Shown here in pieces: positions 10,219 through 52,397 of a stretch of 64,000 bases of DNA. Each line of letters begins with the position of its first letter. Position 1 is the first letter of the stretch. This stretch comes from Chiloscyllium plagiosum (Eukaryota), in NCBI RefSeq assembly GCF_004010195.1, contig NC_057730.1, positions 38,795,920-38,859,919 on the forward strand, in the 5' to 3' direction. The notes beneath the pieces are model-generated. The model was not told where the DNA came from. It saw only the letters and a program-made list of their open reading frames with translations, and searched no databases. A program made the translations under genes and the position numbers.

Positions 10219-10419
10219 AAAGTGAGGTCTGCAGATGCTGGAGATCAGAGATGGAAATGTGTTGCTGGAAAAGCGAAGCAGGTCAGGCAGCATCTAGGGA
10301 ACAGGAGAATCGACGTTTCGGGCGTTAGTCCTGAAGAAGGGCTAATGCCCGAAACGTCGATTCTCCTGTTCCCTAGATGCTGCCTGACCTGCTGCGCTTT
10401 TCCAGCAACACATTTCCAT
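10219..10419. mobile_element. PLE family B fold-back insertion
   Basis: Inverted arms of ~80 bp; TSD tactaccaaaatggag / tactacctaaatggag (1 mismatch). Confidence 0.9.
10327..10362 (+). ncRNA. Minimal type I hammerhead ribozyme motif (family B)
   Basis: agtc-CUGAAGA-a-GGGC-uaau-GCCC-GAA-ACGU-C^-gauu: core intact, 4-bp stem II, palindromic ACGU stem III, short stem I; activity untested. Confidence 0.7.
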
Positions 10420-11259
10420 CTACTACCTAAATGGAGTCAAGTTAGGTAAAGGGGCAGTACAACTAGATCTAGGTGTTCTTGTACATCAGTCAATGAAAGC
10501 AAGCATGCAGGTACAGCAGGCAGTGAAGAAAACTAATAGAATGCTGACCTTCATAACAAGAGGCATTGAATATAGAAGCAAAGAGGTCCTTCTGCAGCTG
10601 TACAGGGCCCTGATGAGACCGCACCTAGAATGTTGTGTGCAGTTTTGGTCTCCAAATTTGAGGAAAGAGATTCTGGCTATTGAGGAAGTGCAGCGTAGGT
10701 TCACGAGGTCAATTCCCGGAATGGCAGGACTATCTTACGCTGAAAGATTGGAGCGACTGGGCTTGTATCCACTTGAGTTTAGAAGGCTGAGAGGGGATCT
10801 GATTGAGATACAAGATTATTAAAGGATTGGACACTCTGGAGGCAGGAAGCATGTTTCCGCTGATGGGTGAGTTCCGAACCAGAGGACACAGTTTAAAAAT
10901 AAGGGGTAGGCCACTTAGAACAGAGTTGAGGAGAAACTTCTTCACCCAGAGAGTGGTGGGTGTATGGAATGCTCTGCCCCAAGAAAGAGTTGGATAGAGC
11001 TCTTAAGGATAGTGGAATCAAGGGTTATGGGAATAAGGCAGGAGCAGGATACTGATTGAGGATGATCAGCCATGATCATAATAAATGGTGGTGCAGGCTC
11101 AAAGGGCAGAATGGCCTACTCCTGCACCTATTGTCTATTGTCTATTGTCTACCAGAACAAATGTGGAGGCTGGTACAATTAAAACATTTAAAAGGCATCT
11201 GGTTGGATATATGAATAAGAAGGGTCTGGAGGGGTATGGGCCAAATGTTGGCAAATGTC

Positions 11260-13205
11260 CATATTACAGAGGGGGAAGTGCTGGTTGTCTTGAAACACAT
11301 AAAGATAGATAAATCCCCAAGACCCAATCAGGTGTACCCTAGAATGTTGTGAGAAGCTAGGAAAGCGATTGCTGGGCCCTTTGCTGAGATATTTGTATCA
11401 TCGACAGTTACAGGTGAGGTGCCGGCAGACTGGAGGTTGGCAAACGTGGTGCCACTGTTTAAGAAAGGTAAAGATAAGCCAGGAAACTATAGACCGGTAG
11501 TGAGCAAGTTGTTACAGGATGTACATGTATTTGGAAAGACAAGGACTGATTAGGGATAGTCAACATGGTTTTGTATGTGGGGAATCATGTCTCACAAACT
11601 TGATTGAGCTTTTTGAAGAAGTAACAAAGAGGATTGATGAGGGCAGAGTGGTGGACGTGATCTATATGGACTTTAGTAAGGCGTTCGATAAGGTTTCCCA
11701 TTGGAGACTGGTTAGCAAGATTAGATCTCATGGAATACAGGGAGAACTAGCCATTTGGATGCAGAACCACTCAAAGGTAGAAGGCGGAGGGTGGTAATGG
11801 AGGGTTGTTTTTCAGACTGGAGACCAGTGACCAGTGGAGTGCCACAAGGATCGGTGCTTGGTCCACTACTTTTTGTCATTTACATAAATGGTTTGGATGT
11901 GATCATAGGAAGTATAGTTAGTAAGTTTGCAGATGACCTCAAAATTGGAGGTGTAATGGACAGATTACATTGGGATCTTGATCAGATGGGCCAATGGGCT
12001 GAGGAGTGGCAGATGGAGTTTAATCTAGATAAATGTAAGATGTTGCATTTTGGGAAAACAAATCTTAGCAGGACTTATATACTCAATGGTCAGGTCCTAA
12101 AGAGTGTTGCTGAACAAAGAGACCTTGGAGTGCAGGTTCATAGCTCCTTGAAAGTGGAGTCACAGGTAGACAGGATAGTGAAGAAGGTGTTTGGTATGCT
12201 TTCCTTTATTGGTCAGAGNNNNNNNNNNNNNNNNNNNNNNNNNNNNNNNNNNNNNNNNNNNNNNNNNNNNNNNNNNNNNNNNNNNNNNNNNNNNNNNNNN
12301 NNNNNNNNNNNNNNNNNNNNNNNNNNNNNNNNNNNNNNNNNNNNNNNNNNNNNNNNNNNNNNNNNNNNNNNNNNNNNNNNNNNNNNNNNNNNNNNNNNNN
12401 NNNNNNNNNNNNNNNNNNNNNNNNNNNNNNNNNNNNNNNNNNNNNNNNNNNNNNNNNNNNNNNNNNNNNNNNNNNNNNNNNNNNNNNNNNNNNNNNNNNN
12501 NNNNNNNNNNNNNNNNNNNNNNNNNNNNNNNNNNNNNNNNNNNNNNNNNNNNNNNNNNNNNNNNNNNNNNNNNNNNNNNNNNNNNNCACTTTTGGAATAT
12601 TGCATTCAATTCTGGTCTCCTTCCTATCGGAAGGATGTTGTAAACTTGAAAGGGTTCAGAAAAGATTTATAAAGATGTTGCCAAGGTTGGAGGATTTGAA
12701 CTATAGGGAGAGGTGTAATAGGCTGGGGCTATTTTCCCTGGAGCATCAGAGGCTGAGGGGTGACCTTATAAAGGTTTATAAAATTATGAGGGGCATGGAT
12801 AGGATAAATAGACAAGGTCTTTTCCTTGGGGTGGGGGAGTGCAGAACTAGAGGGCTTAGGTTTAGGGTGAGAGGGGAAAGATATGAAAGAGACCTAAGGG
12901 GCAACCTTTTCACGCAGAGGGTGGTACGTGTATGGAATGAGCTGCCAGAGGAAGTGGTGGAGGCTGGTACAATTGCAATATTTAAAAAACATCTGGATGG
13001 GTATATGAATAGGAAGGATTTGGAGGGATATGGGCCGGTGCTGGCAGATGGGACTAGATTAGGTTGGGATATCTGGTTGGCATGGACGAGTTGGACTGAA
13101 GGGTCTGTTTCTGTGCTGTACATCTCTATGACTCTATGACTCAATGTCTGGATGTCTGAATTGGACTGAAGTGTCTGTTTCCATGTTGTATGACTCTATG
13201 ACTGT
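11260..13205 (+). mobile_element. CR1/HER1 LINE RT region and 3' end (contains an assembly gap)
   Basis: SQHGFV, YMDFSKAFDKV, SGVPQGSVLGPLLFVIYIN, SKFADDLK; (ctctatga)n tail. Confidence 0.95.
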
Positions 13206-13653
13206 ATCTATTGGGCTTAATTTACTGTGGCTTTAAGTTTCCATCTTGGGAATCTGATTGCCTCTTCCAGGATTGTTCATATTACTGAGCCTAGTCTTGG
13301 CCAGTTTCAAATAACACCTTCAGGTTTGAACCAAATATTTCTGGTCTAGAACTTTTAAACTAAATTACTTACACTGAGGTAACCTCTTCCTTAACAGACC
13401 TAAAACTACCCCTGTTTTCCAACAGCAGCTATTTTATAAATCCAGCTTCAGCCATGACTTTTACAAACTGCTCCAATCTGAAATCTTTTTCCAAGTGATG
13501 GGTGTTTCATCAAAGCTGGATTTCAGAATTATTTATGTGAAAACATATGCCTTTCTTTTACTTTGTTTGCAAGTAAACTCTCCCAGTGTAAATAAATCCC
13601 ATTACTCCATAGGAAATCTCTCTCTAATGTTGTGTTTTAAAATAAAGTTATAA

Positions 13654-13790
13654 GGTGTTGGACTGGGGTGGATTAAAATCAGAAGTCAGAAGCCACATGA
13701 CTTTTTCAGGTGAAGGAGCAACGTTCCGAAAGCTTGTGATTGCAAATAAACCTGTTGGACTATAACCTGGTGTCATGTGACTTCTGACTT
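13654..13790. mobile_element. PLE family A-related small fold-back fragment with degenerate hammerhead
   Basis: ggtgttggactgggg...gaaggagcaacgttccgaaagctt...aataaacctgttggactataacctgg. Confidence 0.7.
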
Positions 13791-14049
13791 TAAAATAAAG
13801 TCACCACAGCTACCGATAGATTCACAAGTTAGTCATCAAACACCTTCAAACACACAGAAAGCCCAAATGCCACTAGTTCAAAATTCAAAAATGAATGATA
13901 TTAAAACAGATATAAATCAGTCACTTTGCACCATAAATGACAGTAAAGTTGGTGCTGTTCAAAAGGCAAGTAGGCTTTGAAAATATTTTTGGCATTTTTT
14001 GTGGATTTAAAGATTATGTATCTAATGTGTTTTGCAAAAGAGTCACTAA

Positions 14050-15500
14050 AAGCATATGGAAGATGAGAAAAAGATTTTTTCACACAGGGAATCGTTACTG
14101 ACGGTAGGTGTAGTCCAACTGCAGTATTCAACAGGACATTAGATAATTATTTAAATAGATACAGTGTACAGGGTTGTGGGGAAAACTCAGGAGGTTGGTA
14201 CTTAGCCAAAATGCTTAGCGAGCTGATACAGACAAAATGGGTCAAGTGACCTCATTCTGCCCCATAACAATTCAATGATTCAGTATATGTTATTTGTAGC
14301 ATTGATAAAGGAAAACCAGGAGATGCAGTGAACTTGAATGTTCAGAGGGCTTTTGACAAGGTCTTATACAGGAGGTTAATAAACTTAATGGGCATAAACC
14401 TTCATAACATTTAAAAAATACTTAATATACACTTGCGGTACCAAGCATATAAAGCTATTGGCAAAGTGCTGGAAAATGGGAGTAGAATAGTTAGATGGTA
14501 GTTTTTCACTGGTGTACCAATGAGCTGAAGGATCCGTTTCTCTGCTCTAGACCTCAATGAAACTAAAATTAGAGTTTGTGGAGTTGAAGATAATGCAATT
14601 ATATGGATTGAGAATTGGTTGATAGGAAGTTGAGAATAGGAATTAAAAAGGTTATGATCAGGATAACAGACTGTTACCAATAGGGTAGTGCAAGGATTAG
14701 TGCTAGAATCACAGCTGTTCATACGCTATGCGAATAATGTGGACGTGGGCACCAAATAATATATTTCTAAATTTGCTGCTGACAAAGAAACTAGGTATAA
14801 ATTGTGAGGAAGATACAAGGAGGCTTTGAGCTGATTTGGACAGGCTAAATGAATGGGCAAAACATGCCAGATGGAATACAATGTGGATAGATGTGAAATT
14901 AATCACTTGGTTGAAAAAAAGCAGAACAATTGAATATTTCTTTAGTGGAGAAAAGTTTGGAAGTGCTGGTGGCCAAAGGAATCCTGGTGTACTTTTTCAA
15001 TAATCACTAAAAGTTAGCAGGGAAGTACAGGTCATTCTGCTATAATGCACATTTCATTAGCGTGAATTTGCGATTAATGGATTGGGGATACTGCCAACAT
15101 TTTTAGCGCTGTTTCTAAAGTGCAATTTTTCTACATTGCATAAGGACGCTCCCGTCGTGTTAGAGAAGAACTACCTGGACACAAATCAAATAGTCCAGTA
15201 AATTGTATGATGACTTTTGTCGCAAATGGATTTGAGAACAGGAGAAAAGATTGCTTTCTGTAATTATGTGAAATCTTGGTGAGACTGCAACGATTGTGTT
15301 GTGTACAGTTCTGGTCTTTTTAACCAAGGAAGCTTATATTTGCCAGAGAGGGAGCACAACAAATGTTCACAGATTGAATCCTGGGATGACAGGATTTTTT
15401 TGAGGAGAGATTGAGGAATTTACTAGAGCTTTGAAGAATCAGAGGTGCTTGCATTGGAGCTTACAATGTTCCTACAGGGTATACAGAGTGATAACAAGAA
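14050..15500 (+). mobile_element. Old CR1 fragments
   Basis: Degenerate AFDKV, PQG.VL, SKFA, W QM.YNV..C and CVQFWS motifs. Confidence 0.7.
15028..15177. mobile_element. Tigger/pogo-like MITE inserted in the CR1
   Basis: Imperfect TIRs caggtcattctgctataa / ttagagaagaactacctg; TA precedes the left end; 150 bp. Confidence 0.55.
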
Positions 15501-15999
15501 ATCAAAATAGCTGTAAGGTCTTTATCCTTTTCTTTCCTCAAGGATGATACACATGTGACTTGCTGAACCATGCCTGCAGCATTTCTTCATCTGGGTTAAT
15601 ACACAGGGGCAATTTCTTTCTCCACAGCACAGTGGTAAATCAGTCATGAAAATTGTAATATGGCTACTGACACGACTGATAGGACCCAGTGTAATTGAAG
15701 AGAACAGCATTTCATTCCCCACTGAGGGAATCAAAGTACAAACTGCAAAGGTTTTCCTCTGTTTTTCAATTTAAAACAAAGCTCTTTCACCCAAGCATAT
15801 CAAAGGTAGCTATTGTTTAGGAAAAAATATATGATTTTATGGATCGGTGATATTTGGCAGGAGATTTTTCACAGAACAAATGTCCCCACTGAAATTGAAG
15901 TGATCATTGCAATGATATGATGCATTGAGCTTACTCCCATGGTTCACCTTATGGAGTAACATAATCTGGTTCTGTTAAGTACTCTGACACACTGAGGCC

Positions 16000-16215
16000 A
16001 ATCCTGTCTATTTGCCGCATCTGTTAGTGAACAGCAGACAACTACTTTATTCCCCTAAAATCACAAAAAAAATGCATCATCTAGCTATCATCACATTTGT
16101 TATTCATGGGACCTTGCTGGGTGTAAACTGGTTGCCGCATTTCCTACGTTGTTGCTTAATTGTTTTGCAATGGCCTGAGGCTGTGCAAAATAGAATATAA
16201 ATGCAAATCTTTCTC
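16000..16215 (+). mobile_element. Deu-domain SINE 3' part
   Basis: tcacatttgttattcatgggaccttgctg...aactggttgccgcatttcctac...atataaatgcaa. Confidence 0.55.
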
Positions 16216-16334
16216 TTTTTGGTACGTTGGTGTCACCCTAGTTTTTCTAAACAGTTAAGTGTCTTCATTAATGTTACAGACAAAATAATATGAATGTGCT
16301 CAGTGACAGTGCTCAAATGAAATATTATTGCATG

Positions 16335-16910
16335 GGTTATCGGAAGGATGTTGTGAAACTTGAAAGGGTTCAGAAAAGATTTACAAGGATGTTGCCAGGG
16401 TTGGAGGATTTGAGCTATAGGGAGTGGTTGAATAGGCTAGAGCTGTTTTCTCTGGAGCATCGGAGGCTGAAGGGTGACCTTATAGGGGTTTATAAAATCA
16501 AGAGGAGTATGGATAGGTTAAATAGACACTTTGGGGTGTCCAGAACTAGTGGGCATAAGTTTAGGGTGAGAGGGGAAAGATATAAAAGAGACCTAAGGGG
16601 CAACCTTTTCACACAGAGGGTGGTGCATATATGGAATGGGCTACCAGAGGATGTGGTGGAGGCTACTACAATTACAACATTTAAGAGGCATTTGGATGGG
16701 TATATGAATAGGAAGGGTTTGGAGGGATATGGGCCGTGTCTGGCAGGTGGGACTAGATTGGGTTGGGATATCTGGTCAGCATGGACAGNNGAGGGATATG
16801 GGCCGGGTGCTGGCAGGTGGGACTAGATTGAGTTGGGATATCTGGTCGGCATGGACGGGGTTGGACTGAAGGGTCTGTTTCCGTGCTGTACATATCTATG
16901 ACTCTATAAC
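16335..16910 (+). mobile_element. CR1/HER1 3' end
   Basis: YRKDVVKLERVQKRFTRMLPGLE...FTQRVVHIWNGLP; ctctatgactctat tail. Confidence 0.95.
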
Positions 16911-17204
16911 TACAGAGAAGTACTTTGCAATGTGCATTATTTAAAACCGTGAGCAAACAGGTTGCCTCTGTTATACAATCCTAACTGTGCTGGGGAATCA
17001 GGAATATCACAGAGCCAAGGGTAGATACTTGGGGGGAAGCCATCATTTATTAATCAAGTATTTAGTGTCACCAAATCCATATAACTCAAGGACACTACTT
17101 TCATAAGCTGATCAATGGTATGAAAATTGTTGATGTTTTCCTTTTATTGAGGGGTGAAATTTCACCAGATGACTCCAGGTGACTGACAACATTTTTATAT
17201 GGGA

Positions 17205-18045
17205 ACCTTTGGCCGAGGAGTGGCAGATGAAGCTTAATTTAGATAAATGTGAGACGCTGCATTTTGGAAAAGCAAACCAGGGCAGGATTTATATACTTAA
17301 TGAGAAGATCCTGGGGAGTGTTGCTGAACAATGAGACTTGGAGTGCAGGTTCATAGTTCCTTGAAAGTGGAGTCGCAGGTAGACAGGATGGTGAAGAAGG
17401 TTTTTGGTATGCTTGCCTTTATTGGTCAGTGTATTGAGTACTGGAGTTGGGAGGTCATGCTGCAGCTGTACAGGATGTTGGTTAGGCCACCTTTGGAATA
17501 CTGTGTTCAATTCTGGTCTCCCTTCCATAGGAAAGATATTGTGAAACTTGCAAGTGTTCAGAAAAGACTTACAAGGATGTTGCCATGGTTGGAGGGTTTG
17601 AGCTATATTTGAGAGGCTGAATTGACTGGGATTATTTTTGTGGCAGCATCAGAGGCTTAGGGTTCATAGAAATTTATAAAATCATGAGTGGCATGGATGG
17701 GGTGAATAACCAATGTATTTTTTTCTGGGATGGCACAGTCCAAAACTAGAGGGCAAAGATTTAAGGTGAGAGAGGAAAAATTTAAAAGGGGCCTCAGAGG
17801 CAATGATTTCATGCAGAGAGTTGTGTGTGTCAGTAATGAGCTGCCAGAGGAAGTGGTGGAGGCTGGTACAATTACAACATTTAAAAGGCATTTGGATGTG
17901 TATATGAATAAGAAGGATTAGAGGGAAATGGGACAAATGCTGGCAAATAGGACTAGATTAATTTAGGATATCTGGTCAGCATGGATGAGCTGGACCAAAG
18001 GGTCTGTTTCCGTGCTATACAGCTCTATGATTCTATGATTCTATA
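17205..18045 (+). mobile_element. CR1/HER1 3' fragment
   Basis: LGVQVHSSLKV...LVRPPLEYCVQFWSP; (ttctatga)n tail. Confidence 0.92.
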
Positions 18046-18383
18046 AGCCTGGTGAGTAAAAGAGAAAGAAATTCTCTCTGGTGTGAGTACTGTAAAGGAG
18101 TATTGTTGGGATTAATGGGTTTGTATTTTACCATGTGTTTTGAAATTGTTCCTTTGTGTAATGTGTAAGTGGATTGTAATCTTGCTAAACATTATCTTCA
18201 TATCTTTTGTGTAATAAGCTTAAGTTTTATGGTTAAACTTGAATCTGCAACCTTGCATGTTTATGTTTCAATGAGTGACAGCTCCATTAATAGCAAAAGA
18301 AAAATTAAAATCTAACCCACCAAGCCAAGTTTCAACCTGGAATCTGATGTGTCCTGTAGCATAATCAACTGGGATCATGATAC
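18046..18383 (-). mobile_element. Fragment of an LTR-like repeat related to 41674-42510
   Basis: Reverse complement begins tgtatcatgatcccagttg...cagattccaggttgaaacttggcttg, similar to tgctatgatcttagctg...cagatcccagaatgaaacctggcttg. Confidence 0.45.
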
Positions 18384-18539
18384 AATGAGTGATCCACAAC
18401 TAACTCAAATCTATTGAATCCTGTCTAGTTGGTTGCACCCAATGCTGCACTACTTTAACATGGTGATGATGATATTCCTCTTGCTCAATATCCTCCTCTC
18501 TTGGAAGACTGCTCTTCAACATCCTGTCACATTCCCTGT

Positions 18540-19331: not shown

Positions 19332-19506
19332 TTGGAGGTGCTGGTGTTGGACTGGGGTATTACCTTTATAAAGTTAAACATCCCACAATAAACCAGATTA
19401 TAGTCCAACAGGTTTATTTGGAAGCACTAGCTTTTGGAGTACTGCTCTTTCATCAGTTGGATGTCCACCTGATGAAGGAGCAGTGTTCCAAAAGCGTGAT
19501 TTTTAA
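19332..19506. mobile_element. PLE family A fold-back insertion (older)
   Basis: TSD cagcataactcttgat at 19316-19331 and 19507-19522; cttcatcag-like arm then cctgatgaaggagcagtgttccaaaagc. Confidence 0.85.
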
Positions 19507-20828: not shown

Positions 20829-21054
20829 GTACAAAGTTAAAAATCACATGACACCAGGTTATAATCCAACAGGTTTAATTGGAAACACTAACTTTTGGAG
20901 CGCTGCTCCTTCACTAGGTGGTTGTCACATCTACCTGATGAAGGAGCAGCGCTCCAAAAGCTAGTGCTTCCAATTAAACCTGTTGGACTATAACCTGGTG
21001 TTGTGTGATTTTTAACTTTGTACAGCCCAGTCCAACACCGGCATCTCCAAATCA
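20829..21054. mobile_element. PLE family A fold-back insertion
   Basis: ~90-bp inverted arms around a ~15-bp spacer; + arm cctgatgaaggagcagcgctccaaaagctagtg (G12 to A); no clear TSD. Confidence 0.88.
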
Positions 21055-21780: not shown

Positions 21781-22581
21781 TAAAAACAATGATTGCAGAT
21801 GCTGGAAACCAGAGTCTAGATTAGAGTGATGCTGGAAAAGCACAGCAGTTCAGGCAGCATCTGAGGAGCAGTAAAATCGACGTTTTGGGCAAAAGCCCTT
21901 CATCACGAATACAGGCAGAGAGCCTGAAGGGTGGAGAAATAAATGAGAGCAGGGTGGGGGTGGGGAGAAAGTAGCATAGAGTACAATAGGTGAGTGGGGG
22001 AGGGGATGANNNNNNNNNNNNNNNNNNNNNNNNNNNNNNNNNNNNNNNNNNNNNNNNNNNNNNNNNNNNNNNNNNNNNNNNNNNNNNNNNNNNNNNNNNN
22101 NNNNNNNNNNNNNNNNNNNNNNNNNNNNNNNNNNNNNNNNNNNNNNNNNNNNNNNNNNNNNNNNNNNNNNNNNNNNNNNNNNNNNNNNNNNNNNNNNNNN
22201 NNNNNNNNNNNNNNNNNNNNNNNNNNNNNNNNNNNNNNNNNNNNNNNNNNNNNNNNNNNNNNNNNNNNNNNNNNNNNNNNNNNNNNNNNNNNNNNNNNNN
22301 NNNNNNNNNNNNNNNNNNNNNNNNNNNNNNNNNNNNGTGGATAGGTGGAAAAGGAGATAGGCAGGTAGGACAGGTCATGGGGACAGTGCTGAGCTTGAAG
22401 TTTGGAATTGGGGTGAGGTGGGGGCAGGGGAAATGAGGAAACTGGTGAAGTCCATATTGATGCCCTGGGGTTGAAGTGTTCCGAGGTGGAAGATGAGGTG
22501 TTCTTCCTCCAGGCATCTGGTGGTGAGGGAGCGGCGGTGAAGGAGGCCCAGGACCTCCATGTCCTCGGCAGAGTGGGAGAG
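21781..22581 (-). mobile_element. 5'-truncated Penelope-like element, family B (GIY-YIG C-terminus, 3' UTR, terminal repeat)
   Basis: Minus ORF LEEEHLIFHLGTLQPQGINMDFTSF; terminus gtgatgaagggcttttgcccaaaacgtcga; TSD ggtgacccagg at 21770-21780 and 22582-22592; spans a gap. Confidence 0.88.
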
Positions 22582-23204
22582 GGTGACCCAGGGGCTGTTT
22601 GGAGATGGAGGACCAAGCCATATGGAGAGTGTCCTGCACAGACACGGTATCCTGCTTCTCAGCTGTATCTTTCACAGGCAGGCTGTGACTGAAAGGCAGG
22701 ATGGACGCACAGGAGACGTCTGGGGGATCCTGTGTATGTGGCACCAGCCTGTGTCCTTGAGAGGTAGGGGCAGCTGGAGTGAGATCAAGGTCTCTCATGC
22801 CCATGTCTCCTTGATGATCATTCCGAGTACCAGTGGCTGAAACAATGGAGTGGAGCTCTGTTGCATTTCTGGCTGCCACTGAGTGTTCTGCAGGACCTGT
22901 TTTTCCATGATATTCACAGAGACAGCCAGATACGAGCATGTCGAAGTCAACAGCATGGTTCTGATAACATTGGTGGATTCCTCCCATCTTAAGTCCATGT
23001 GATTTTAGTGCGTGTTTAGCCAACCTCCCATGCTGCTCTTGTTGCTGCCTGTGCATTTGCACAAAGTCATGAAGGGCTGACACCATGGGGACCTCCTCTC
23101 TGTGCTGAGGCTGAGGGATACCTGAGCTCCAGTGGTATTCTGCGTGCCAGAGTCCTCAGGCAGTGGTAGTGATGTGTTCACTAGACTATGCTCCTGCATC
23201 TAAT

Positions 23205-23465
23205 GAGCGATTGAGTGACAGAGGGATTGAGGGATTGAGGAACTGAGAGATTGAGTGCCTGAAAAACTGAGGGAATGCAGGACTGAGGGACTGAGTTACT
23301 AAGGGATTGAGTTACTAAGGGATTGAATGACTGAGGGACTGTTGGCCTGAGGGGCTGATGGAGTGGAGATTGATGGGCCGAGAGACTGAGAGACAGAGGG
23401 ACTGAGGGGCTGAGGGTTTGAGGAACTGAGGGATTGAGTGACTGTATAACTGAGGGACTGAGGAC
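23205..23465. repeat. Degenerate 8-bp tandem repeat (actgaggg)n
   Basis: Repeated ctgaggga/ttgaggga units. Confidence 0.85.
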
Positions 23466-23849
23466 TCTACACCAGCCTCAAGACATCCCCGTGCCACTAC
23501 TGCTCTCAGACCAACTCACACACCACTTCAACTGTTCAGCGTTTGACATTGGAGACCTGGGGCACCCATGACTTGATACTGCCCAGGCTGCTGTGTGTCC
23601 ACTTCATGTATCTGCACAGCACATATCTGATGGCCTTTAACTTCACATTTGAATGCTCACTCACTTAGAGGCTGCCAGCCACTGTGCCTTGCATTACTCA
23701 GCCAGCACAAAGGGATAGATGGGCTGCTTGTCTCAGTTGGGAGCACCCAGCAATCAAGGGGGTGGACATGTTGCTATGCAGCACTGAGCTACATGAACAT
23801 CCCACCTGCAGCATTGGCAGCAGATTATGTGGGAAACACACTGCAAATG

Positions 23850-27079: not shown

Positions 27080-27480
27080 CAGTCACTGAAGTACGATAGT
27101 TCCCATTGTAATGTAGGGAAGCATAGCAGACAATCTGGGCACAGCAATTTCCAGCAAGCAGCAATGCAATAAATACTAGGCCACCGCTGTTTGGGAGTGA
27201 GAAATATTTGCCCAGGACTCTCAGGAGAACTCCCCTGCTCTTTGGAATAGTGCCAAAAGGTCTTTTACAGGGACAAAAAAATCTGCAGATGCTGGAATCC
27301 AAAGCAGACAAGGAGGAGGCTGGAAGAACACAGCAAACCAGGCAGCATCAGGAGAAGCCTGATGTTTTGGATATAAGCCCTCTTCAGGAAGAAGGGTTAT
27401 ACCTGAAACATTGGAATTCTCCACTTCCAGCCTTCTGCCTGTCTACAAAAGATCTTTTACAGCTACCGAGAACCCTCACC
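27080..27480 (-). mobile_element. Deu-domain SINE interrupted by a family B-like insertion
   Basis: aaatatttgcccaggactctcaggagaactcccctgctctttggaatagtg is the reverse of the Deu core. Confidence 0.6.
27271..27445. mobile_element. Older PLE family B-like fold-back insertion
   Basis: ctgcagatgctggaatc...gcagcatc...cccttcttcag-like / gaagaagggttatacctgaaacatt; TSD caaaagRtcttttacag at 27254-27270 and 27446-27462. Confidence 0.75.
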
Positions 27481-28825: not shown

Positions 28826-29146
28826 GATTTGGAGATGCCGGTGTTGGACTGGGGTGTACAAAGTTAAAAATCACACAACACCAGGTTATAGTCCAACAGG
28901 TTTAATTGGAAGCACTAGCTTTCGGAGCGCTGCTCCTTCATCAGGTGGATGTGGAGGACACAATTGTAAGACACAAAATTTTCAATCTATCATATCAGTT
29001 ACATCGCACTGTAAACTTTTGCGATAAATTCTGTGTCTTACAATTGTGTTCTCCATAACCACCTGATGACGGTACGGCGCTCCGAAAGCTGGTGTGCTTC
29101 CAATTAAACCTGTTGGACTATAACCTGGTGTTGTATGATTTTTAAC
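28826..29146. mobile_element. PLE family A fold-back insertion
   Basis: ~115-bp inverted arms; TSD tataacaaaat at 28815-28825 and 29149-29159. Confidence 0.9.
28913..28947 (-). ncRNA. Minimal type I hammerhead ribozyme motif (family A, intact)
   Basis: Reverse complement: cac-CUGAUGA-a-GGAGC-agc-GCUCC-GAA-AGCU-A^-gug; activity untested. Confidence 0.7.
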
Positions 29147-29230: not shown

Positions 29231-30560
29231 GATTTGATGGTGCCCATGTTGGACTGGAGTGGACAAAGTTAAAAATCACACAACACCAGGTTATAGTCCA
29301 ACAGGTTTATTTGGAAGCACTAGCTTTCAAGTTGAACCGCCTCTTCATCAGGCGGTTGTAGAACAAGCCCATAAGACACAGAATTTATAGCAAAAAGGTT
29401 ACAGTGTAATGGATCTTTAATGATATATTAAACAAATTTATATTAAGACTTTCCTCTTTTAGAATGGAGTATGTTAGTTTTGGTTCTTTAATATGTAAAT
29501 CCCAGAACTCCTTTTAAGTTACCTTCTCAAGATAGCTTCAGCTTTTCGAACAATAGATGCCATTTCAGCCCAGACAATGCATTAAAGATGTGAGGTTAAA
29601 GTCTGTCTGTGTCCCAATGTTGCGTCAGATTGGTTCTATTTCTAAATGGAACTTACAGAATGTTACATGAATTAATGCAGTTTTTGAGCAAAATAAAATG
29701 TAATTCTGCAAATACAAATTTACCCCATAAACCTGTATGTGTGTATGTGCACAAGAGTGTGTGAGTGTGCATGAGTGTGCATGTAAGTGTGTGTGTGGGT
29801 GTCAGTGCATGTGAAACAGTGTGTGTGTATATGTGTGTAAGCTTGGTCAAGTATGTGTCTGAGTGTGATGGGGTATAAGCCTGTGAGAGGGTGCGTGCAT
29901 GAGTGTGAGTGTGGGGGCTGCATATGTGTGCTTATGAGAGAGAGCTTGTGTATAGGAGAGGGTCTGCGTGAGTATGTGAGTATGTTGAAGTGTGAGTGTA
30001 TGTACGTGCGTGTGTACATGTGTGTGTATACATGTGTGTGTATACATGTGTGTGTACGTGTGTGTGTACGTGTGTGTGTGTGTACGTGTGTGTGTGTACG
30101 TGTGTATGTATGCATTGCAGTGGAGTCACTTGTTATGTGACATGAACCCAAGGTCCTGGTTGAGGCCATCCCCATGGGTACCGAACTTGGCTATCAGCCT
30201 CTGCTCGAGGTCTGCCTTGGAGGACAGTCATCCGAAGGTCTGAGGTCGAATGTCCTGGACTGCTGAAGTGTTCCCTGACTGGAACAATGATGAATTGTTG
30301 CGCAGTGCCCAATTATCATTGCCATAGCCTCTGCTCGACCTTGCCAGTGTACCATGCCTCAGGGCATCCTTGTCTGCAGCATATGAGATAGACATTGGTT
30401 AAGTCACATGAGTACTCGCTGTGTACATGGTGGGAGGTCTCCCCATGTATAATGGCGGTGTCTGTGCCAACACTCTGGCATGTCTTGCAGTGGCTGCTGC
30501 AGAATTTGTGGGCAGAAATGGGTTGGCTTCCAACAAGGGTTTCCTTACTCTCCCAGTGTC
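29231..30560 (-). mobile_element. 5'-truncated Penelope-like element, family A (GIY-YIG domain, microsatellite-containing 3' UTR, terminal repeat)
   Basis: CSSHCKTC, NVYLICCRQGCPEAWYTG..EQRL, HFSSPGH..SDL, EQRLIAKFGTHGDGLNQDLGFMSH*; ends in the family A terminus. Confidence 0.9.
29734..30115. repeat. Compound (TG)n / (TGTA)n microsatellite within the PLE 3' UTR
   Basis: Directly visible. Confidence 0.9.
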
Positions 30561-31940: not shown

Positions 31941-32034
31941 AAGAGTCAAGATCAGAGTGGTGCTGGAAATGCACAGCAGGTCAGGCAGCATCCGAGGAGC
32001 AGGAAAATCAATGTTTCGGGCAAAAGCCCTTCAT
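31941..32034 (-). mobile_element. PLE family B terminal fragment, ending within the hammerhead core
   Basis: gctggaaatgcacagcaggtcaggcagcatccgagg...atgtttcgggcaaaagcccttcat. Confidence 0.8.
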
Positions 32035-32502
32035 ACTATAGTTGATTGACACCTCGAAAAGGTTTTTGATGGACTTTTGATGTGTTTTAATGAATACAAA
32101 TCTTTGTTTTAATCAAATACTTAGGGATATTTAAACCAAATGAATGGGCTTTCATACATGGAAGTGCTTTTTAAAGAGTGAAATCTGTAATGGATATTTA
32201 AAACATTACTTTATTTCATTTCAGCATAGTTATGGAGGTCTGCCCACAATAGATATCAGGTTGATTGGTATGCAGGGTATAAAGGTAAATGAGTTTGTAC
32301 TAAATTGGTGATAAAATGCCATGGGAAGAAGTGAGAGGCATGGAGATCATGAGGAGCCAATTGGCGATGATAGGGGTATATGTGTTGTCATGGTGAATAT
32401 TAGGAGCCATGTATTCCAAAGACAGGCGTGCAGAGTCAAGAAATTTCCCAATACAAACCATCCACCTCGAAGATGAAAATCTAGCCTTTCTTTTATTGAA
32501 CC

Positions 32503-33705
32503 GAGAGTCACAGAGCCATAGAGATGTACAGCATGGAACCTCTCAGTCCAACCCGTCCATGCCAACCAGATATCCCAACCCAATCTAGTCCCACTGCCAG
32601 CACCCAACCCATATCCCTCCAAACGCTTCCTATTCATATACCCATCCAAATGCCTTTTAAATGTTGCAATTGTACCAGCCTCCACCACTTCCTCTGGCAG
32701 CTCGTTCCATACACGTACCACACTCTGAGTGAAAATATTGCCCCTTAGGTCTCTTTTATATCTTTCCCCTCTCACCCCCTAAACCTATGCCCTCTAGTTC
32801 TGGACTCCCCGACCCCAGGGAAAAGACTTTGTCTATTTATCCTATCCATGCCCCACATGATTTTATAAACTTCTATAAGGTCACCCCTCAGCCTCCAATG
32901 CTTCAGGGAAAACAGCCCCAGCCTGTTCAGCATCTTCCTATAGCTCAGATCCTCCAACCCTGCCAACATCCTTGTAAATCTTTTCTAAACCCTTTGAAGT
33001 TTCACAACATCTTTGTGACAGGAAGGAGACCAGAATTGAACGCAATATTCGAACAGTGACCTAAAACCAATGTCCTGTACAGCCACAACGTATCCTCCCA
33101 ACTCCTGTACTCAATACTACAGCGTGGGCAGCACGGTGGCACAGTGGTTAGCAGTGCTGCCTCATAGCGTCAGAGACCCGGGTGCAATTCCCGCCTCAGG
33201 CGACTGACTGTCTGGGGTTTGCACATTCTCCCCGTGTCTGCGTGGGTTTCCTCCGGGTGCTCCGGTTTCCTCCCACNNNNNNNNNGTACTCAATACTCTG
33301 ACCAATAAAGGAAAGCACACCAAACACCTTCTTCATTATCCTATCTACCTATGACTCCACTTTCAAGGAGCTATGAACCTGTGCTCCAAGGTCTCTTTGT
33401 TCAGCAATACTACTTAGGACCTTACCATTAAGTGTATAAGTCCTGCTAAGATTTGCTTTCCCAAAATGCAGCACCTCACATTTATCTAAATTAAACTCCA
33501 TCTGCCACTTCTCAGGCTATTGGCCCATCTGATCAAGATCCCGTTGTAATCTGAGGTAACCTTCTTCGCTGTCCACTACACCCCCAATTTTGATGTCATC
33601 TGCAAACTTACTAACTGTACCTCTTATGCTCACATCCAAATCCATATAAATGACAAAAAGGAGTGGACCCAACACCGTTCCTTATGACACTCCACTGGTC
33701 ACAAG
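32503..33705 (-). mobile_element. CR1/HER1 3' part
   Basis: Minus ORFs FTQSVVRVWNELPEEVVEAG and RLRGDLIEVYKIM; reverse complement encodes SKFADDIK. Confidence 0.93.
33126..33276 (+). mobile_element. HE1-like SINE inserted in the CR1 (cut by a gap)
   Basis: gggcagcacggtggcacagtggttagcag head; flanking duplication gtactcaatact. Confidence 0.88.
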
Positions 33706-38756: not shown

Positions 38757-39362
38757 AGAGTCAAGAGTGTAGTGCTGGAAAAGCACAGCAGGTCAGGCAG
38801 CATCCGAGGAACAGGAGAATCGATGTTTTAGGACNNNNNNNNNAGGCTTGTGGGCCGGGGGGGCCGAGAGATAAATGGGAGGGGGGGGGGACCACGTGGG
38901 AAGGGAAATTGCAATGTTGGAAGAAGGAGGCCATCGGGGATTTTCTATGGTGGAATTGGTCATCCTAGGAACAGACCAGAGGAGGTGGAGGAATTGGGAA
39001 TAAGGGATGGTGTTTTAACAGGTGTAGAGTGGGAGGAGGTGTAGTCTAGGTAGCTGTGGGGGTTGGTGGGCTTGTAGTAGATGTCCATGTTGAGTCGGTT
39101 GCTGGAGATGGAGATGGAGAGGTCCTGGAAGGGGAGAGAGGTGACTGAGATGTTCCAGGTGAATTTGAGATCAGGGTGAAAGGCATTGGTGAAATTGATG
39201 AACTGTTCGACCTCCTTGTGGGAGCATGAGATAGCACTGATACAGCCATTGATGTAGCGGAGGAACAGGTGGAGAATGGTGCTAGTGTAGCTGCAGAAGG
39301 TGGACTGTTCCAAGGCAGGCATCGCTGGGGCCCATGCGTGCGTCCATGGCTTTCCCTTTGGT
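38757..39362 (-). mobile_element. Penelope-like RT fragment adjacent (across a gap) to a family B terminus
   Basis: LFLRYINGC (YIDD position), FHPDLKFTW, LPFQDLSI, DIYYKPTNPHSYLDYTSSH: the PLE RT/thumb signature. Confidence 0.88.
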
Positions 39363-39364
39363 CT

Positions 39365-40658: not shown

Positions 40659-41000
40659 GGGTGGCACGGTGGCTCAGTGGTTAGCACTGCTGCCTCACAG
40701 TGACAGGGACCTGGGCTTGATTACACCCTCAGGTGACTGTCTGTGTAGAATTTGCACATTCTACCTGTGTCTGCATGGGTTTCCTCTGAGTGCTCCAGTT
40801 TCCTCCCACAGTCCAAAAGTGTGCAGTTTAGGTGGATTGACCATGCTAAATTGCACATAGTGTTCAGGGATGTGCCGGCAAGATGGATTAGCCATGGGGA
40901 ATGCAGGGTGACAGGTTACAGTGGGTCCAGGTGAGATGCTCTTTGGAGAGATGGTGTGGAGGGGCTAAATGGCCTGCTACCATACTGTAGGGATTCTATA
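40659..41000 (+). mobile_element. HE1-like SINE
   Basis: ggtggcacggtggctcagtggttagcactgctgcctcacag...ctgtagggattctat. Confidence 0.9.
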
Positions 41001-43322: not shown

Positions 43323-44052
43323 CAGGTTGTAAGTTTGCTTGCTGAGTTAGTAGGTTTGTTTTCAGAAGTTTCCTCACCATGCTAGGTAACATCAGTGAGC
43401 CTCCATTGAAACACTGGTGTTCTGTCCCACTTTCTGTTTATGTGTCTTGGTCTGTTAAGGTGGATGATATTATTTCCAGTTCTTTTTCTCAGAGGTTGGT
43501 AAATGGGGTCCAAATTGATGTGTTTATTGATGGAGTTTCCACTGTAACAGCTACCAATGAACCTAAAGGAGCCTGTACCAACAACAAGCAAGACAAATGT
43601 CATTCACAAAATACCCTGCAAGGACTGCAGCAAAACTACATTGGACAGACAGGCAGGAGACTAGCCATTAGGATACACGAACACCAACTAGCCACCAAAA
43701 GACATGACCCACTATCACGAGCATCCTTACATACAGACAAAGAAGGACACCAGTTCGACTCGGACAACATATCCATCCTCAGACAGGCTAAACAGAGACA
43801 TTCATGAGAATTTCTAGAGGTCTGGCATTCAAACCAGAACTCCATCGATTTGGACCCCATTTACCAACCTCTGAGAAAAAGAACTGGAAATGATATCACC
43901 CACCTTAACAGACCAAGACTCATAAATAGGAAGTGGGACAGAACACCAGTGCTTCACCGGAAGCTCACTGATGATGCTACCCGGCATGGTGACGAAACCT
44001 CTGAGAACAAATCTACCAGCTCAGCTAGCAAACTTACAACCTGAACTACAAA
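43323..44052 (+). mobile_element. Truncated Penelope element, family C: inverted pseudo-LTR, GIY-YIG domain, pseudo-LTR
   Basis: NYIGQTGRRLAIRIHEHQLATKRHD; ~190-bp inverted terminal copies; TSD tctcttaagt at 43313-43322 and 44053-44062. Confidence 0.92.
43964..44005 (+). ncRNA. Minimal hammerhead motif (family C, one core-adjacent mutation)
   Basis: cuca-CUGAUGA-u-GCUACC-cggcau-GGUGAC-GAA-ACCU-C^-ugag; 4-bp stem I. Confidence 0.6.
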
Positions 44053-44069
44053 TCTCTTAAGTGGAAGGC

Positions 44070-47860: not shown

Positions 47861-50800
47861 TTCTGGCATCAAAAAAGTCTATAAAATTAGTGTAACATGA
47901 AGACAAAAGGAGAGAAAAAGATTGCTAATTTTTGTTGCAAATTAGTTCAATTAACTGTAATAAAGACAATTAAATAATTCTATTAGCCACTTTGTCTTAT
48001 CTATAAAAGTTTCACAGAAACATTGGGTGGCTCAATGAAAATCTCTTTATATATTGCACTTGTATATATTGTCTTATACACAAGAAAATATCTCACTGTA
48101 GCCCTTCAACGGTATTTTGTCATCCTGGAGCATAGGATTATAGTAAGTATTTTTGCTGTGGACTTGGTCCTTTGTCCCTGCCTTTTGTGGGCTCTTAATT
48201 AGATGCAACTTAATAAGATAGTTTTTAACCACAATCTAATTCAAGACTCAAGAGGATGAATGGTTTACTTCCATACCCGTCCTTCCCATGGAAGGGAAAC
48301 TAACAAATGAGTAATATTGGACTCACTAAGAGATTGTGTAAAACAAGTTTGGATTGTTTTCCTTTGTGATCTACATCAAATATATCCTCATAGAAAGGCA
48401 GCAATCATGGTGCATCCTGAGCTGTATTCCTATATTATTTCTTAATAGTGCAATGGATTACAGGATAAGCTAACAAGAAGGACAGCACAGAAACAAACAT
48501 TTGTTGAGTATGATGACGTCTTCCTGTCCTAAACAAGAATTTTTCTATCCTTTTGTTACACTCACGCTTCAGGGGTAGACACAACCTTTGGTTGCTAAAT
48601 TCAATGTCTCTGTGTTGAATGCTTTTGGTCTTTGTCTCTTTCTACTCTCGCTTTATCCTACCACAGATTCCATCACTTACAGCGTAGCTCAGGAAGTTCC
48701 TTCCACTAAGATTGAATTGTGCTGAAGCTAAATGACAATCATACATCACAAAATATGCCTCCTTTTTGGCTTGATATCCAGCTTTTCTTTTATGACTCTA
48801 AAACATGCCTAATAGCTTTTTCTTTTATAAACAAGTATCTTGGATTAGCTAAAAGAATTATGAGGTGCATACTTGCAATTCATCTTCCAACAAGTACCAT
48901 AATAATGAAATTTCAGAATCGTGGTATCTGAAGGAAGTGTTGATCAGCATTGTCCTAACAGCCAAGACTTCATCTTCATACATCAGTTCCTAGACAACTC
49001 AGCCTATTTGACTTAAGCTGTAAACAATATTACTCTTTGTCGTATTGAACCAGAGACAGTTTAGTTCCATACAAACACTCGTTTCTTCCCCTTCAGAAAT
49101 AACAAAGCATACACAGAAAGACCTGCTTTACATCATTGCCAGGAATGAGTTCTTAATGAACCAAATTTTGAGTATGGCGATTGAGCTTAGATAATGTCTT
49201 CCAATGATTCAACAAGAGTTTTGGAGAGATTTGCACAAATTACACCAGTGCATCAAATGTCTTAAAGTTCCATCAAAATCTTGTCAGCACATCAAACAGA
49301 TACTTAGAAATATGTATCTCTCATTGAAGAAATGATAGTCAGTGTATCTTTTCACAAAGCATCAGAGCTTTTCAGTTTTACTATAAATGGTCTGTATCTT
49401 TCGTTAAGTATACACTGGATTCTTAGTCTTTCATAGTGTTTGACATTAATATCCTTTTATTTAACCAGAGCTGTCACAGTGTATGGAAATAATACTGTCT
49501 ATTCACCTTTTCACAGGCTCACTTCAGACAAAAAAAGGTAGTTAAATTTAGATTAAATTTACCTAAAGCATGCACTACCAGAACTCATGGACACAGTTCA
49601 CTTCATCTTCCATAAATATATGAAGAGGAAATATGGATGCAATTTAGTTTCTATACTTAAATAAAGCAATTTTTTTGGCATTTGGAGAATTGGTAGAAAG
49701 CTTTGTCTTTCCATTATGTAGTTTTGTGCAACTCAACGCAGAATTCTTTCAATTAATTCTAGCTTAATTCGAAGAGTGTAACTGTATGTCGATACTGCCT
49801 GTATTTTAGCTATTGGGCTGTGGCTCCTCATCAGTTCATATCCTAGTCACCAAATCATATACTTATTACAATACAACGACCCTGTATTTAATTAGGTATT
49901 GAACCAAAATCCACACTGTAAAATATCATCACGATCAGAAAGAAGAGGGGATAAGAGATACACTCTTATACCATGAGATTAGATACAAATAATGCCAAAC
50001 AGAAAACACTGATTTTTTAAAAAAATTTCAACAATGTTCTAAGATTGGTTTCTGCTGCAACTAGACAACTTCTTGGTGCATCTCTGTGAGATGTTAATAT
50101 TGTCAGGTTTGACATTGAAGTGAGGTGTTGACAAAGTCACCACATTGATGATGAACAGATGATTTAATATCTCTCAAAAGAGCCAACCAAGAGTGAGTGA
50201 CACCACCTTGTTTATGGCAAAGAGAATTCTAAAATATCTCCAAAGCACCTCTCTTCTGTAATTGAACTGCATGCTGAGATAATGCAATTGCTTTTATACC
50301 AGAACTCTCACAGCCTTAAGTATTTTTTGAACTTTGATGTTTTCTTGGGTTTTCTTGTGACCTGAAGTGAATTTCATGTGCCCTGTAATCTGGAACCTGT
50401 CCTCTTCTGTCTAAGATGTAGAATAACATGTTCAGGGACTTGGAACAGGGAACCCTGAGTATCAATTCAACCAGTAAAAGTTTTATTTTAAAATAAAACA
50501 TGTGATGAAAAAGAAGACAACTTAAAACTGAGAGCAGTCACTCTTCTTAGAAATAAAAAGTAATAAAGATGCCAATTTTGTAAGTGCATATGCATTTCTT
50601 GTTGCAGACTTTCTTGGTAATGCCATTGCTGGCCCACTTCACACCATGTTGGGAGAGAGAGGAAGGCTGAACCTTCTTTCCAACTCCCTGAAGTCAATTA
50701 GATGGTGTGAGTTTGGATCTCCAATGCTGTCCATTAAAATTACTACTCCTGGCAGAATACTTATCCTGTTGTGTGAGCCTTTCCAGTATGCCAAGTGCCA

Positions 50801-51970
50801 GTATGCCAAGTGAATTCAGCCAATTCATTCATTCCAAGCGATACCAAGGAACAGCTCAGCTGGGCCTCTGGGGCCAGAATCTAGAAGCAGCAAAAGCACT
50901 GAAGACCTCTGCTGCAAGTTTGCAGTGCCCATAATCAAGCTTTTCTAGTATAACCACAGCACTGGCATGTGCCTAACAATGAGGACGAATCAAACCTGAC
51001 CAATTACTGCCCTATCATCAGCTAACTAATTGAAGGCAGTCATAACCACTGCTCTCAAGTAGTACTTGGAAAGGAATAGGTTGCTCTCTGATGTTCAGTA
51101 TGGCTTCCAGGTTTGGCCACTCAGCTCCTGACCTCATTACACTATTTGTCCAAACATGGACAACAGGGCTGAATTCTAGAGGATAGATAAGAGTGACAGT
51201 CTCTGACATCAGAGAGAGTGTGGTATCAATGAGCCCTCACAAACCTGCAGACAATGGGAATCCAGGGGAAATCTCCTTGCTGGTTGGAGTCATACCTAGC
51301 AGAAAGGAAGATAGCTGTAGTTATTGGCGGTCAATCAGCTCAGCTCCAAGGCATTACCATAGGAATTTTTCAAGGTAGTGTCCTAGGCTTAAACATCTGC
51401 AGCTGCTTCATCAATGACCTTCGATCCATCTTAAGGTCAGAAATGAGTTATTCTCTGATGACTGCACAATGTTCAGTAGCGTTCACAATTCCTCAGATAT
51501 TGAAATAGTCCATATCCAAATACAGCAAGACCTATGTAATATTGAGGCTTAAACAGTGGCAAGTAACGTTCATACCATTCCAGAGCCAAGCAATGACCTC
51601 CGCCAACAAGAGAGAATCTAATTATTGCACCTTTACATTCAATGGCATTACAGTTGCTGAATTCCCCAGTAACAACATCCTGGATGTTACCATTAACTAG
51701 AAACTGATCTGGTCCAGCCATGTGAATAAACAGTGGCTACAAGAGCAGATCATTAGGAATCTGACAATTAGTAACTCATCTTCTGACTTCCCAAAGACTG
51801 TCCACTATCTACAAGGCACAAGTCAGGAATGTTACTTCCTACCAAGTGGATGATTGCAGCTCTAACAATATTCAAGAAGTTTGATACCATCCAAAGACAA
51901 AGCAACTCACTAGACTGGTACCATATCCACTGCTTCCTTCTTTGCCTTCACCCCTAACACACAGTGGCTG

Positions 51971-52397
51971 TGATTTGGAGATACCGGTGTTGGACTGGGG
52001 TGTACAAAGTTAAAAATCACACAACTCCAGGTTATAGTCTAACAGGTTTAATTGGAAGCACTAGCTTTCGGAGCGACGCTCCTTCATCAGGTGGTTGTGG
52101 AGAACACAATTGTAAGGCACAGAATTTATAGCAAAAGTTTACAGTGTGATGTAACTGAAATTATAAATTGAAAAATACCTTTATTGTTGAGTCTTTCATC
52201 TGTTCGAGTACCATGATAGTTTCACTTCTTTCATGTGTATATCACAAAACTTTTTTTTTTAAAAGTTGCATTCTCAGGTTAACTGTAACAATTCGTGTTA
52301 GCTGGACAATATGTTGAAGGTGTTCTCTGTCTGTGCCATGATGTTTAGATTGATACTAATCTAAAAAGTGAGGTAACCGAGTTTACATGAATTCATG
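51971..52397 (-). mobile_element. PLE family A 3' end (terminal repeat plus UTR)
   Basis: Matches 29231-29680 and 28826-28980. Confidence 0.9.
52059..52093 (-). ncRNA. Minimal hammerhead motif (family A, intact)
   Basis: Reverse complement: cac-CUGAUGA-a-GGAGC-guc-GCUCC-GAA-AGCU-A^-gug; loop II differs from the 28.9 kb copy while the stem is retained. Confidence 0.7.

Follow-up and report, generated by a model that had tools for sequence, protein, structure and literature searches.

Minimal hammerhead motifs of dispersed PLE ends in the genome of Chiloscyllium plagiosum and the probable role of their palindromic stem III

In this study, the hammerhead motifs found in a stretch of 64,000 nucleotides of Chiloscyllium plagiosum (NC_057730.1, positions 38,795,920 to 38,859,919; hereafter the window) were investigated, together with related copies from the rest of the genome. 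The copies in the window were attributed to families A, B and C and to lineage E, and are given here with the features that accompany them:

52059..52093, minus strand: family A minimal hammerhead, the solo copy in the best state of preservation, with stem I CAC/GUG, its core at 52090-52084 and AGCU at 52066-52063; cleavage predicted after A 52062
52032..52052, minus strand: stretch with the family A poly(A) signal ATTAAA at 52052-52047
52035 and 52032, minus strand: poly(A) addition positions of family A reads, which are genome-wide and may not come from the 52059..52093 copy
28913..28947, minus strand: family A hammerhead, core intact, AGCU 28920-28917, head-to-head with the 29063 copy
29063..29091, plus strand: inverted family A partner in which boxes and AGCU are preserved, stem II is disrupted and H17 is G
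29318..29354, minus strand: family A copy with AGCU preserved and a degraded stem II
20845..21010, both strands: family A tight inverted pair forming a long hairpin; cores 20917 (minus, AGTT) and 20935 (plus, AGCT), both with G12 changed to A
19384..19500, both strands: family A tight inverted pair, decayed; cores 19456 (minus, AGCT) and 19469 (plus, AGCG)
13707..13740, plus strand: family A copy, decayed, of the UU-triplet subfamily, AGCU
10256..10405, both strands: family B tight inverted pair; core 10331 (plus), ACGU 10354-10357, with cleavage predicted after C 10358
4355..4562, both strands: family B inverted pair; cores 4438 (minus, ACGU) and 4472 (plus, AUGU); outside the range of the first-pass annotation
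53329..53498, both strands: family B tight inverted pair; core 53419 (minus), ACGU 53396-53393; likewise outside that range
21875..21906, minus strand: family B (B2) copy, decayed, ACGU
32007..32037, minus strand: family B (B2) copy, decayed, ACAU
38812..38829, minus strand: family B 3' half, ACAU
43964..44005, plus strand: family C hammerhead with CUCA/UGAG as stem I and ACCU at 43997-44000
43362..43398, minus strand: family C inverted copy, ACUU 43369-43366, 3-nt deletion in the first box
43580..43804, plus strand: family C GIY-YIG-like endonuclease coding remnant, 5' of the sense-strand hammerhead
27386..27418, plus strand: lineage E copy, decayed, ACAU

A total of 18 window sites, each with a locatable core, were scored, leaving out the minus-strand copy at 38812..38829, the first box of which falls in an N gap. 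The first-pass annotation had read AGCU after GAA in family A and ACGU in family B, and both readings hold in the window, where AGCT was observed in 7/9 family A sites (exceptions AGCG at 19469 and AGTT at 20917) and ACGT in 4/6 family B sites (exceptions ATGT at 4472 and ACAT at 32037, both of which represent CpG decay). The two family C copies display ACCT (43997-44000, plus) and ACTT (43366-43369, minus), the latter with a first catalytic box short of 3 nt, and their proposed descent from an ACGU ancestor is borne out by random C1 and C2 copies, 10 of 18 of which harbor ACGT and 6 more ACAT or ATGT. The lineage E copy at 27386 (plus) shows ACAT at the palindrome position. Only 6/18 window sites have kept the two catalytic boxes along with a palindrome that is still perfect, and of those six the minus-strand core at 52090 is the only one that also preserves stems I and II and for which no inverted partner was found nearby. 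At family A ends, it was also observed that the poly(A) signal is used 27-30 nt past the point of predicted cleavage, and that the RNAs concerned are still uncut at that point; this polyadenylation just past the predicted cut is a useful side result.

The motifs consist of CUGANGA, stem II, GAAA and UH in type I order, and the subfamily majority sequences have the G10.1-C11.1 pair, with one additional nucleotide separating 9 from 10.1, while a short helix I flanks the core, with 3-4 of its first 4 positions pairing in 6/6 lineages. Judged by sequence, the window motifs are published minimal, dimer-type hammerheads of Penelope-like elements (PLEs), the cleavage mode being predicted. An Rfam scan of the window returned no hammerhead family and only sub-threshold hairpin matches.

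In families A, B and C the motif lies in the terminal repeat, 3' of PLE RT or GIY-YIG coding sequence on the same strand: a 725-aa RVT_1 plus GIY-YIG frame lies 366 nt ahead of a family B motif, two family A motifs 2,517 nt apart flank an RT, and a GIY-YIG-like piece is situated 164 nt upstream of the family C motif of the window. From the appearance of this EN piece, family C may be a Penelope/Poseidon-type PLE; Pfam gave no match on the piece itself, nor on 5/6 fragments. On locus L260, Pfam detected RVT_1 (E 2.8e-6) and GIY-YIG (E 6.5e-4), both just under curated cut-offs, and the family B translation from this locus has C-X4-C-X2-C ahead of the GIY-YIG region. Neptune/Nematis-type PLE are described as carrying a CX2-5CxxC zinc-finger linker between RT and EN (PMC8557442), a trait shared by family B, which may be of either type. 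For lineages D, E and F, the 700-900 nt ahead of the motif showed no RT or EN match in the small number of copies examined. A fully intact autonomous element was not found among these loci, as the EN region is missing from L011 and N gaps interrupt L260 and L268; a 962-aa open frame and several long family B frames were also rejected, no matching long N-free frame being present and the loci having N gaps. The two RTs furthest apart were those of B and C (29% identity), and B and A shared 35-37%, family C being a single row on a long branch of the RT tree.

Exact-core matches across the genome numbered 19,752 for family A and 113,666 for family B, with 0 matches for the reversed-pattern controls of both cores. 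Palindrome spectra are quoted from a random sample of 98 loci of 10 kb, since pattern-chosen loci are biased, especially for family A; clusters 3, 8, 9, 10 and 12 and 170 singletons or pairs were excluded as non-hammerhead repeats or chance. ACGU is the palindrome of lineages B, C, D, E and F, and AGCU that of A only (5/6 vs 1/6); here D, E and F are based on 10, 5 and 3 copies, E and F were assigned ACGU from their CpG-decay patterns, and the tails of D, E and F resemble that of family B, so that these three may not be independent lineages. The claim that the palindrome is family-specific is therefore not supported, since B and C are among the five lineages that have ACGU in common.

It had been further proposed that the palindrome acts as a family-specific dimerisation code, with A insulated and B and C perhaps able to cross-activate. 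The palindromes of A and B do differ, and with the nearest-neighbour model applied to subfamily majority sequences, the penalty for mismatched palindromes comes to about 7.6-8.4 kcal/mol in silico, and a swap made in both partners brings the energy back to within 0.8 kcal/mol; A is thus predicted to be incompatible with B or C, as had been anticipated. AGCU is also very stable, being retained in 21/23 random family A copies, but this is explained by its lack of a CpG, the CpGs of family A itself being 48-59% decayed. Moreover, as A15.1 and U16.1 are catalytic, only four Watson-Crick palindromes are possible, of which just two are in use, and one of these serves five of the six lineages. Stem I gives a different picture: its majority arms pair within 6/6 lineages at 20/24 positions, a level reached by 2/720 permutations, and across lineages it allows a full double hammerhead in 1/15 pairs and a single core in 4/15. 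While stem I excludes the full dimer in 14/15 lineage pairs, the palindrome permits 10/15 and excludes 5, all of them already excluded by stem I, so that it excludes nothing on its own (0/15). The suggested cross-activation of B and C likewise fails in prediction, because the swapped stem I is mismatched at the first pair in both directions, which leaves B+C predicted incompatible, as is A+B. A palindrome-swapped subfamily is absent from the A and B matches listed: 616 of the 19,752 family A cores are without G15.2, with ACGT in none among 100 listed, and B-bodied AGCT was noticed once among 100 listed of 960. AUAU was rejected as covariation evidence, since double CpG decay of ACGU yields it. 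We consider a palindromic code highly improbable. The lineage covariation of stem I is itself expected from self-pairing alone and is not evidence of selection for discrimination.

The first-pass annotation had also held that none of the motifs can fold a monomeric stem III. This stands for any usable register, as no monomer register of the subfamily majority sequences unites two or more stem III base pairs with a cleavable H17 and even a single pair in stem I; it does not stand in its literal form, as family A can form a 3-bp hairpin in a later register from A15.1 (AGC-UAGU-GCU), which has 0 stem I pairs. Homodimers, for their part, lie 5-19 kcal/mol above the monomer folds in the nearest-neighbour model, so a dimer needs help from outside the model, and the predicted dimer fraction is roughly <1e-8 at 1 nM-1 uM partner when protein-free. 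One might suppose that a protein folds the motif into a monomer that is then cut, or that no cut occurs at all, and that the palindrome is kept for RNA dimerisation, protein binding or the like. Cleavage of the anole hammerhead is reported as protein-dependent and dispensable for insertion in vitro, with no RNA-seq ends at its cut site (PMC11167929), and Naiad elements are said to have spread without canonical hammerheads (PMC8557442), which would suit this account. However, A15.1-U16.1 cannot be closed over a 2-nt loop and no alternative register is usable, a schistosome motif is described as cleaving when dimeric or trimeric and failing to do so as a monomer (PMC4209133), and core, stem I and palindrome are all retained across lineages with RT identity of only 29-37%, making this account quite unlikely.

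Another possibility is that RNAs of dispersed ends, assisted by protein, pair with and cut transcripts of the same lineage in trans, with selectivity residing in stem I plus palindrome; the first-pass annotation had similarly suggested that solo termini could act in trans on full-length PLE RNA. Family A termini were found in sense, polyadenylated RNA, 67/177 sampled copies have no partner nearby, and the anole hammerhead is reported to be cut only with a protein that is predicted to be dimeric (PMC11167929). Yet the dispersed palindromes show neutral decay and no sign of selection: the palindromic CpG has decayed in 32% of random B1 copies vs 23% and 19% at adjacent CpGs, and in 49% of random B2 copies vs 28%, 37% and 38%. 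In addition, 66/177 sampled copies belong to inverted pairs less than 150 nt apart and are predicted to be hairpin-locked, like the family B motif of 10256..10405 (MFE -170 kcal/mol for 10240-10425). Poly(A) reads cross the family A cut site uncut and show no accumulation of read starts or read ends there, in a library that is blind to cut products. The decay and the locking of the copies, with the predicted instability of protein-free dimers, argue against the suggested role of solo termini. Trans cleavage is thus quite unlikely, though if it were true, PLE hammerheads would gain a function in controlling their own family. An extended form, in which stem I encodes lineage recognition and family A couples its hammerhead to the poly(A) site, so that transcribed family A ends supply sense, uncut hammerhead RNAs which, joined by the element's protein, cut and de-tail same-lineage transcripts in trans as a lineage-specific, ribozyme-based copy-number control, is very unlikely. 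A direct neighbour within 3.5 kb was found for only 7/177 sampled copies, and a non-LTR retrozyme with a hammerhead in each tandem unit was rejected on this count.

Probably, the palindrome is a structural need of strand-swapped pairing rather than a family label, with selectivity lying mainly in stem I and the solo ends being mostly fossils. The motifs would then be dispersed, mostly decayed PLE ends in which cleavage probably requires two hammerheads to join as a strand-swapped pair. In each active site, one copy would supply the catalytic boxes, stem II and the 5' arm of stem I, and the partner would contribute the UH triplet together with the 3' arm, the two palindromes building one shared stem III of 4 bp. 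This strand-swapped geometry is taken from the established double-hammerhead structure. Dimer cleavage of short-stem-III PLE hammerheads was reportedly described by Lunse, Weinberg and Breaker in RNA Biol in 2017. Lineage selectivity, if any, would come mainly from stem I, and the two copies of a tandem transcript are probably joined by the element's own protein, as the anole element suggests; ACGU may be the common form and the AGCU of lineage A a neutral alternative. Under strand-swapped pairing, the choice of partner lineage should lie with stem I rather than with the palindrome; a B+E pair is accordingly predicted to be active and a B+C pair inactive.

The motif type is already known, and this study adds another large set of the published motif, in which the proposed code is absent. 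Metazoan PLE pLTRs are described as carrying minimal hammerheads, min-HHR (Cervera and De la Pena 2014, PMC4209133), and the motifs here share with them the type I order, the extra nucleotide after A9, G10.1-C11.1, the palindromic 15.2-16.2, the short helix I, and the presence of several families per genome, most copies being dispersed singly and some lying in opposite orientation (PMC4209133). They differ in copy number, with more than 113,000 exact B cores compared to about 4,000-9,000 motifs given for coelacanth and Xenopus by another method (PMC4209133). PLE hammerhead variants with a short stem III, which is palindromic as here, cleave as dimers (as summarised in PMC6765202, PMC6466107); dimer dependence, reported there, is predicted here. 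The Poseidon element PAc of Anolis carolinensis likewise has a vertebrate PLE hammerhead in a pLTR and a dominance of uncut RNA, but its protein-assisted motif was assayed biochemically (Frangieh et al. 2024, PMC11167929), whereas the motifs here are described from sequence and reads. A weak palindromic helix III is also shared with the hammerheads of non-LTR retrozymes and amphibian satellites, which are reported to be more active as dimers (PMC7229834; bioRxiv 10.64898/2026.07.22.740005); those occur as short tandem repeats whose loops are canonical, whereas the shark copies are minimal motifs.

The motif scans located 18 hammerhead cores in the window, which comes from a 3.56-Gb genome; an Rfam search of the same window gave no hammerhead family match. 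The palindrome after GAA read AGCT in 7 of 9 family A copies, ACGT in 4 of 6 family B copies, ACCT and ACTT in the two family C copies, and ACAT in the single copy of lineage E. Genome-wide, the exact core pattern matched 19,752 times for A and 113,666 times for B, with 0 matches for the reversed controls, and two looser searches, both including B variants, returned 42,071 matches (935 in the control) and 11,531 (61). In a random sample of 98 loci of 10 kb (941,521 non-N bases), AGCT was observed in 21 of 23 family A copies and ACGT in 46/72 of B1, 10/31 of B2, 7/10 of C1 and 3/8 of C2, the remaining copies of these four subfamilies being mostly ACAT or ATGT. The hammerhead motifs and their palindromes are therefore real, and the C1 and C2 counts confirm the ACGU ancestor proposed for family C in the first-pass annotation. 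Its claim that no motif folds a monomeric stem III needs qualification, since in a later register family A can fold 3 bp from A15.1 into a hairpin; this hairpin leaves out stem I, so that an active monomer is not predicted. For two of the A subfamilies the predicted fold pairs AAGC with GCUU, notwithstanding a 2-nt insertion, and hides the AGCU palindrome in a hairpin, and the third has a related fold; the hairpin may represent an off-state or simply follow from the stem I sequence.

52056-52069, minus strand: predicted palindrome-burying hairpin, found in the family A majority sequences too

All these motifs are in sense orientation and downstream (3') of the coding sequence of Penelope-like elements (PLEs). 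One 725-aa frame, which matches RVT_1 and GIY-YIG slightly below the curated cut-off in both cases, ends 366 nt upstream of a B motif, and reverse transcriptase (RT) sequence is flanked by two A motifs spaced 2,517 nt apart at sampled locus L011 and by two B motifs spaced 2,737 nt apart at L268. In the window, a GIY-YIG-like remnant is followed 164 nt downstream by a family C motif; this family C remnant (43346-44050) is an endonuclease piece between inverted terminus copies, whose arms (43390-43520 and 43843-43973) are 92% complementary. Fragments of a LINE-like family of repeats are also numerous (9000-18050, 32555-33553, 57789-58230), with the family B hairpin at 10.3 kb apparently inserted into one of them. 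The first half of U6 snRNA is weakly matched at 12619-12667 (plus strand; 21.8 bits, E 0.52), directly ahead of a LINE-like fragment, which may be due to chance, and miRNA matches on a (TG/CA)-rich simple repeat were rejected as spurious.

33127-33200, 40660-40733, 60839-60912, 61886-61959: four copies of a repeat whose 5' end resembles a tRNA, probably a SINE
23191-23468: 8-nt minisatellite
63772-63976: 15-nt minisatellite
29996-30069: (TG/CA)-rich simple repeat
10256-10405, 53329-53498, 20845-21010, 19384-19500: tight head-to-head inversions of hammerhead termini

Among 177 sampled copies with a core, an inverted partner was found within 150 nt in 66 and within 150-3,000 nt in 37, a direct neighbour within 3.5 kb in 7, and no partner in 67, partners being undercounted in loci of 10 kb. 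Inverted 5'-truncated copies are a known trait of PLEs, according to passages of PMC8557442. The predicted cut sites were less than 150 nt apart in 66/103 inverted copies (random loci L013-L070 and L279-L318), mostly 45-70 nt, which places the fold-back point at the first catalytic box or immediately 5' of it, as though reverse transcription frequently halted or turned back on reaching the hammerhead.

The palindrome had been read as a family-specific dimerisation code, and this reading is not supported. Because the core dictates A15.1 and U16.1, just four Watson-Crick palindromes are available, and two families would by chance alone differ in half to three quarters of cases. Clustering by stem II and flanks gave six lineages, of which five (B, C, D, E and F) carry ACGU or forms derived from it by CpG decay, leaving A alone with AGCU; for D, E and F no linked RT was found, and copies are few (10, 5 and 3 in the clustered set; 16, 4 and 5 in random loci). 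Among loci with a nearby motif and at least 120 aa of RT, identity to B was 35-37% for A (two segments, each about 150 aa long) and 29% for C (one segment of 276 aa), and C formed the longest branch in a tree of 24 rows. Since B and C share ACGU at the lower identity whereas A differs at the higher, palindrome sharing does not track kinship. No palindrome-swapped subfamily was seen among the A and AGCT matches listed: for the 616 A cores without G15.2, the 100 listed include 0 with ACGT and 3 with AATT, and for the 960 AGCT motifs not captured by the strict A pattern, the 100 listed include one B body, the other 99 resembling A variants by eye.

In the type I double hammerhead, the partner strand supplies the UH triplet and the stem I 3' arm (an established geometry; Fig. 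1A legend of PMC4209133), so a mixed pair needs a stem I match too. The majority stem I arms are lineage-distinct and self-pairing (A CAC/GUG, B AUUC/GAUU or GAAU, C UCA/UGA, D AGUU/AACU, E AUUC/GACU, F AGCU/AGUU), filling 20/24 positions, a score reached by 2/720 permutations; this covariation follows from self-pairing and alone does not demonstrate selection for discrimination. When the first two stem I pairs are required, 1/15 lineage pairs can form both cores and 4/15 at least one; B-E is the sole combination across lineages for which a complete double hammerhead is predicted. The palindrome permits 10/15 pairs and excludes none that stem I permits. The predicted incompatibility of A with B thus stands with the palindrome redundant to it, and the suggested cross-activation of B and C is contradicted, the first stem I pair being mismatched in both directions. 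Within a family the palindrome is still of importance, as a mismatch there cost 7.6-8.4 kcal/mol in silico and was restored by swapping both partners. The downstream tail motif of B recurs in lineages D, E and F, in which stems I and II are lineage-specific.

27386-27418 in the window, and sampled loci L246, L247 and L185: observations of lineages D, E and F

Family A RNA was followed in X19, a poly(A) single-cell run of which about 2% was read, with a species label identical to that of run X15, whose contigs show 0-4 differences per 250-580 nt from the unique window flanks. T-runs join X19 reads at 52035 (343 reads) and 52032 (391 reads), 27 and 30 nt past the predicted cut; they are absent at those joins from the X15 contigs, so the tail was likely added to RNA. 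Family A RNA reads gain poly(A) 27-32 nt past the predicted cut (window 52032-52052, minus strand; L011 6931-6934). An AATAAA or ATTAAA is present after the motif in 74/95 A copies versus 1/216 others, this signal lying directly past stem I in family A and missing from that position in other lineages. A cut at the predicted family A site would take off the poly(A) tail. Continuous read depth across the site indicates uncut RNAs, in a library type that cannot reveal cut products, and RNA depth on the unique window flanks is almost nil, so the reads do not demonstrate transcription of the window's own copies.

These family A terminus reads, plentiful in X19 and mainly of the sense strand, would suit the proposal that solo PLE ends act in trans, but it is otherwise poorly supported. 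CpG decay in the palindrome is no slower than at adjacent CpGs (B1 32% versus 23% and 19%; B2 49% versus 28%, 37% and 38%); the difference always points to faster decay at the palindrome, with Fisher p = 0.03-0.27 for counts that were reconstructed from rounded fractions. Tight inverted pairs moreover bury the motif within long duplexes, and homodimers are predicted to be less stable than monomer folds by 5-19 kcal/mol at 1 M, a rough estimate because tertiary contacts of the core are left out of the model. For the anole element, PMC11167929 describes a hammerhead that cleaved solely in the presence of protein and that insertion in vitro did not require; by analogy, a protein-bridged pair appears the likeliest working form.

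A literature search gave no paper on hammerhead, heterodimer and Penelope together, and no cross-family analysis or report of a poly(A) site in the PLE terminal repeat (pLTR) by title or abstract start; the key Lunse et al. study lies outside this coverage, so unpublished status is not claimed. The motif and palindrome-mediated dimerisation are already known: PMC4209133 names the palindromic 15.2-16.2 of minimal hammerheads and states that dimers and trimers cleave weakly while monomers do not, and our motifs display all four traits given there by Cervera and De la Pena for minimal hammerheads.
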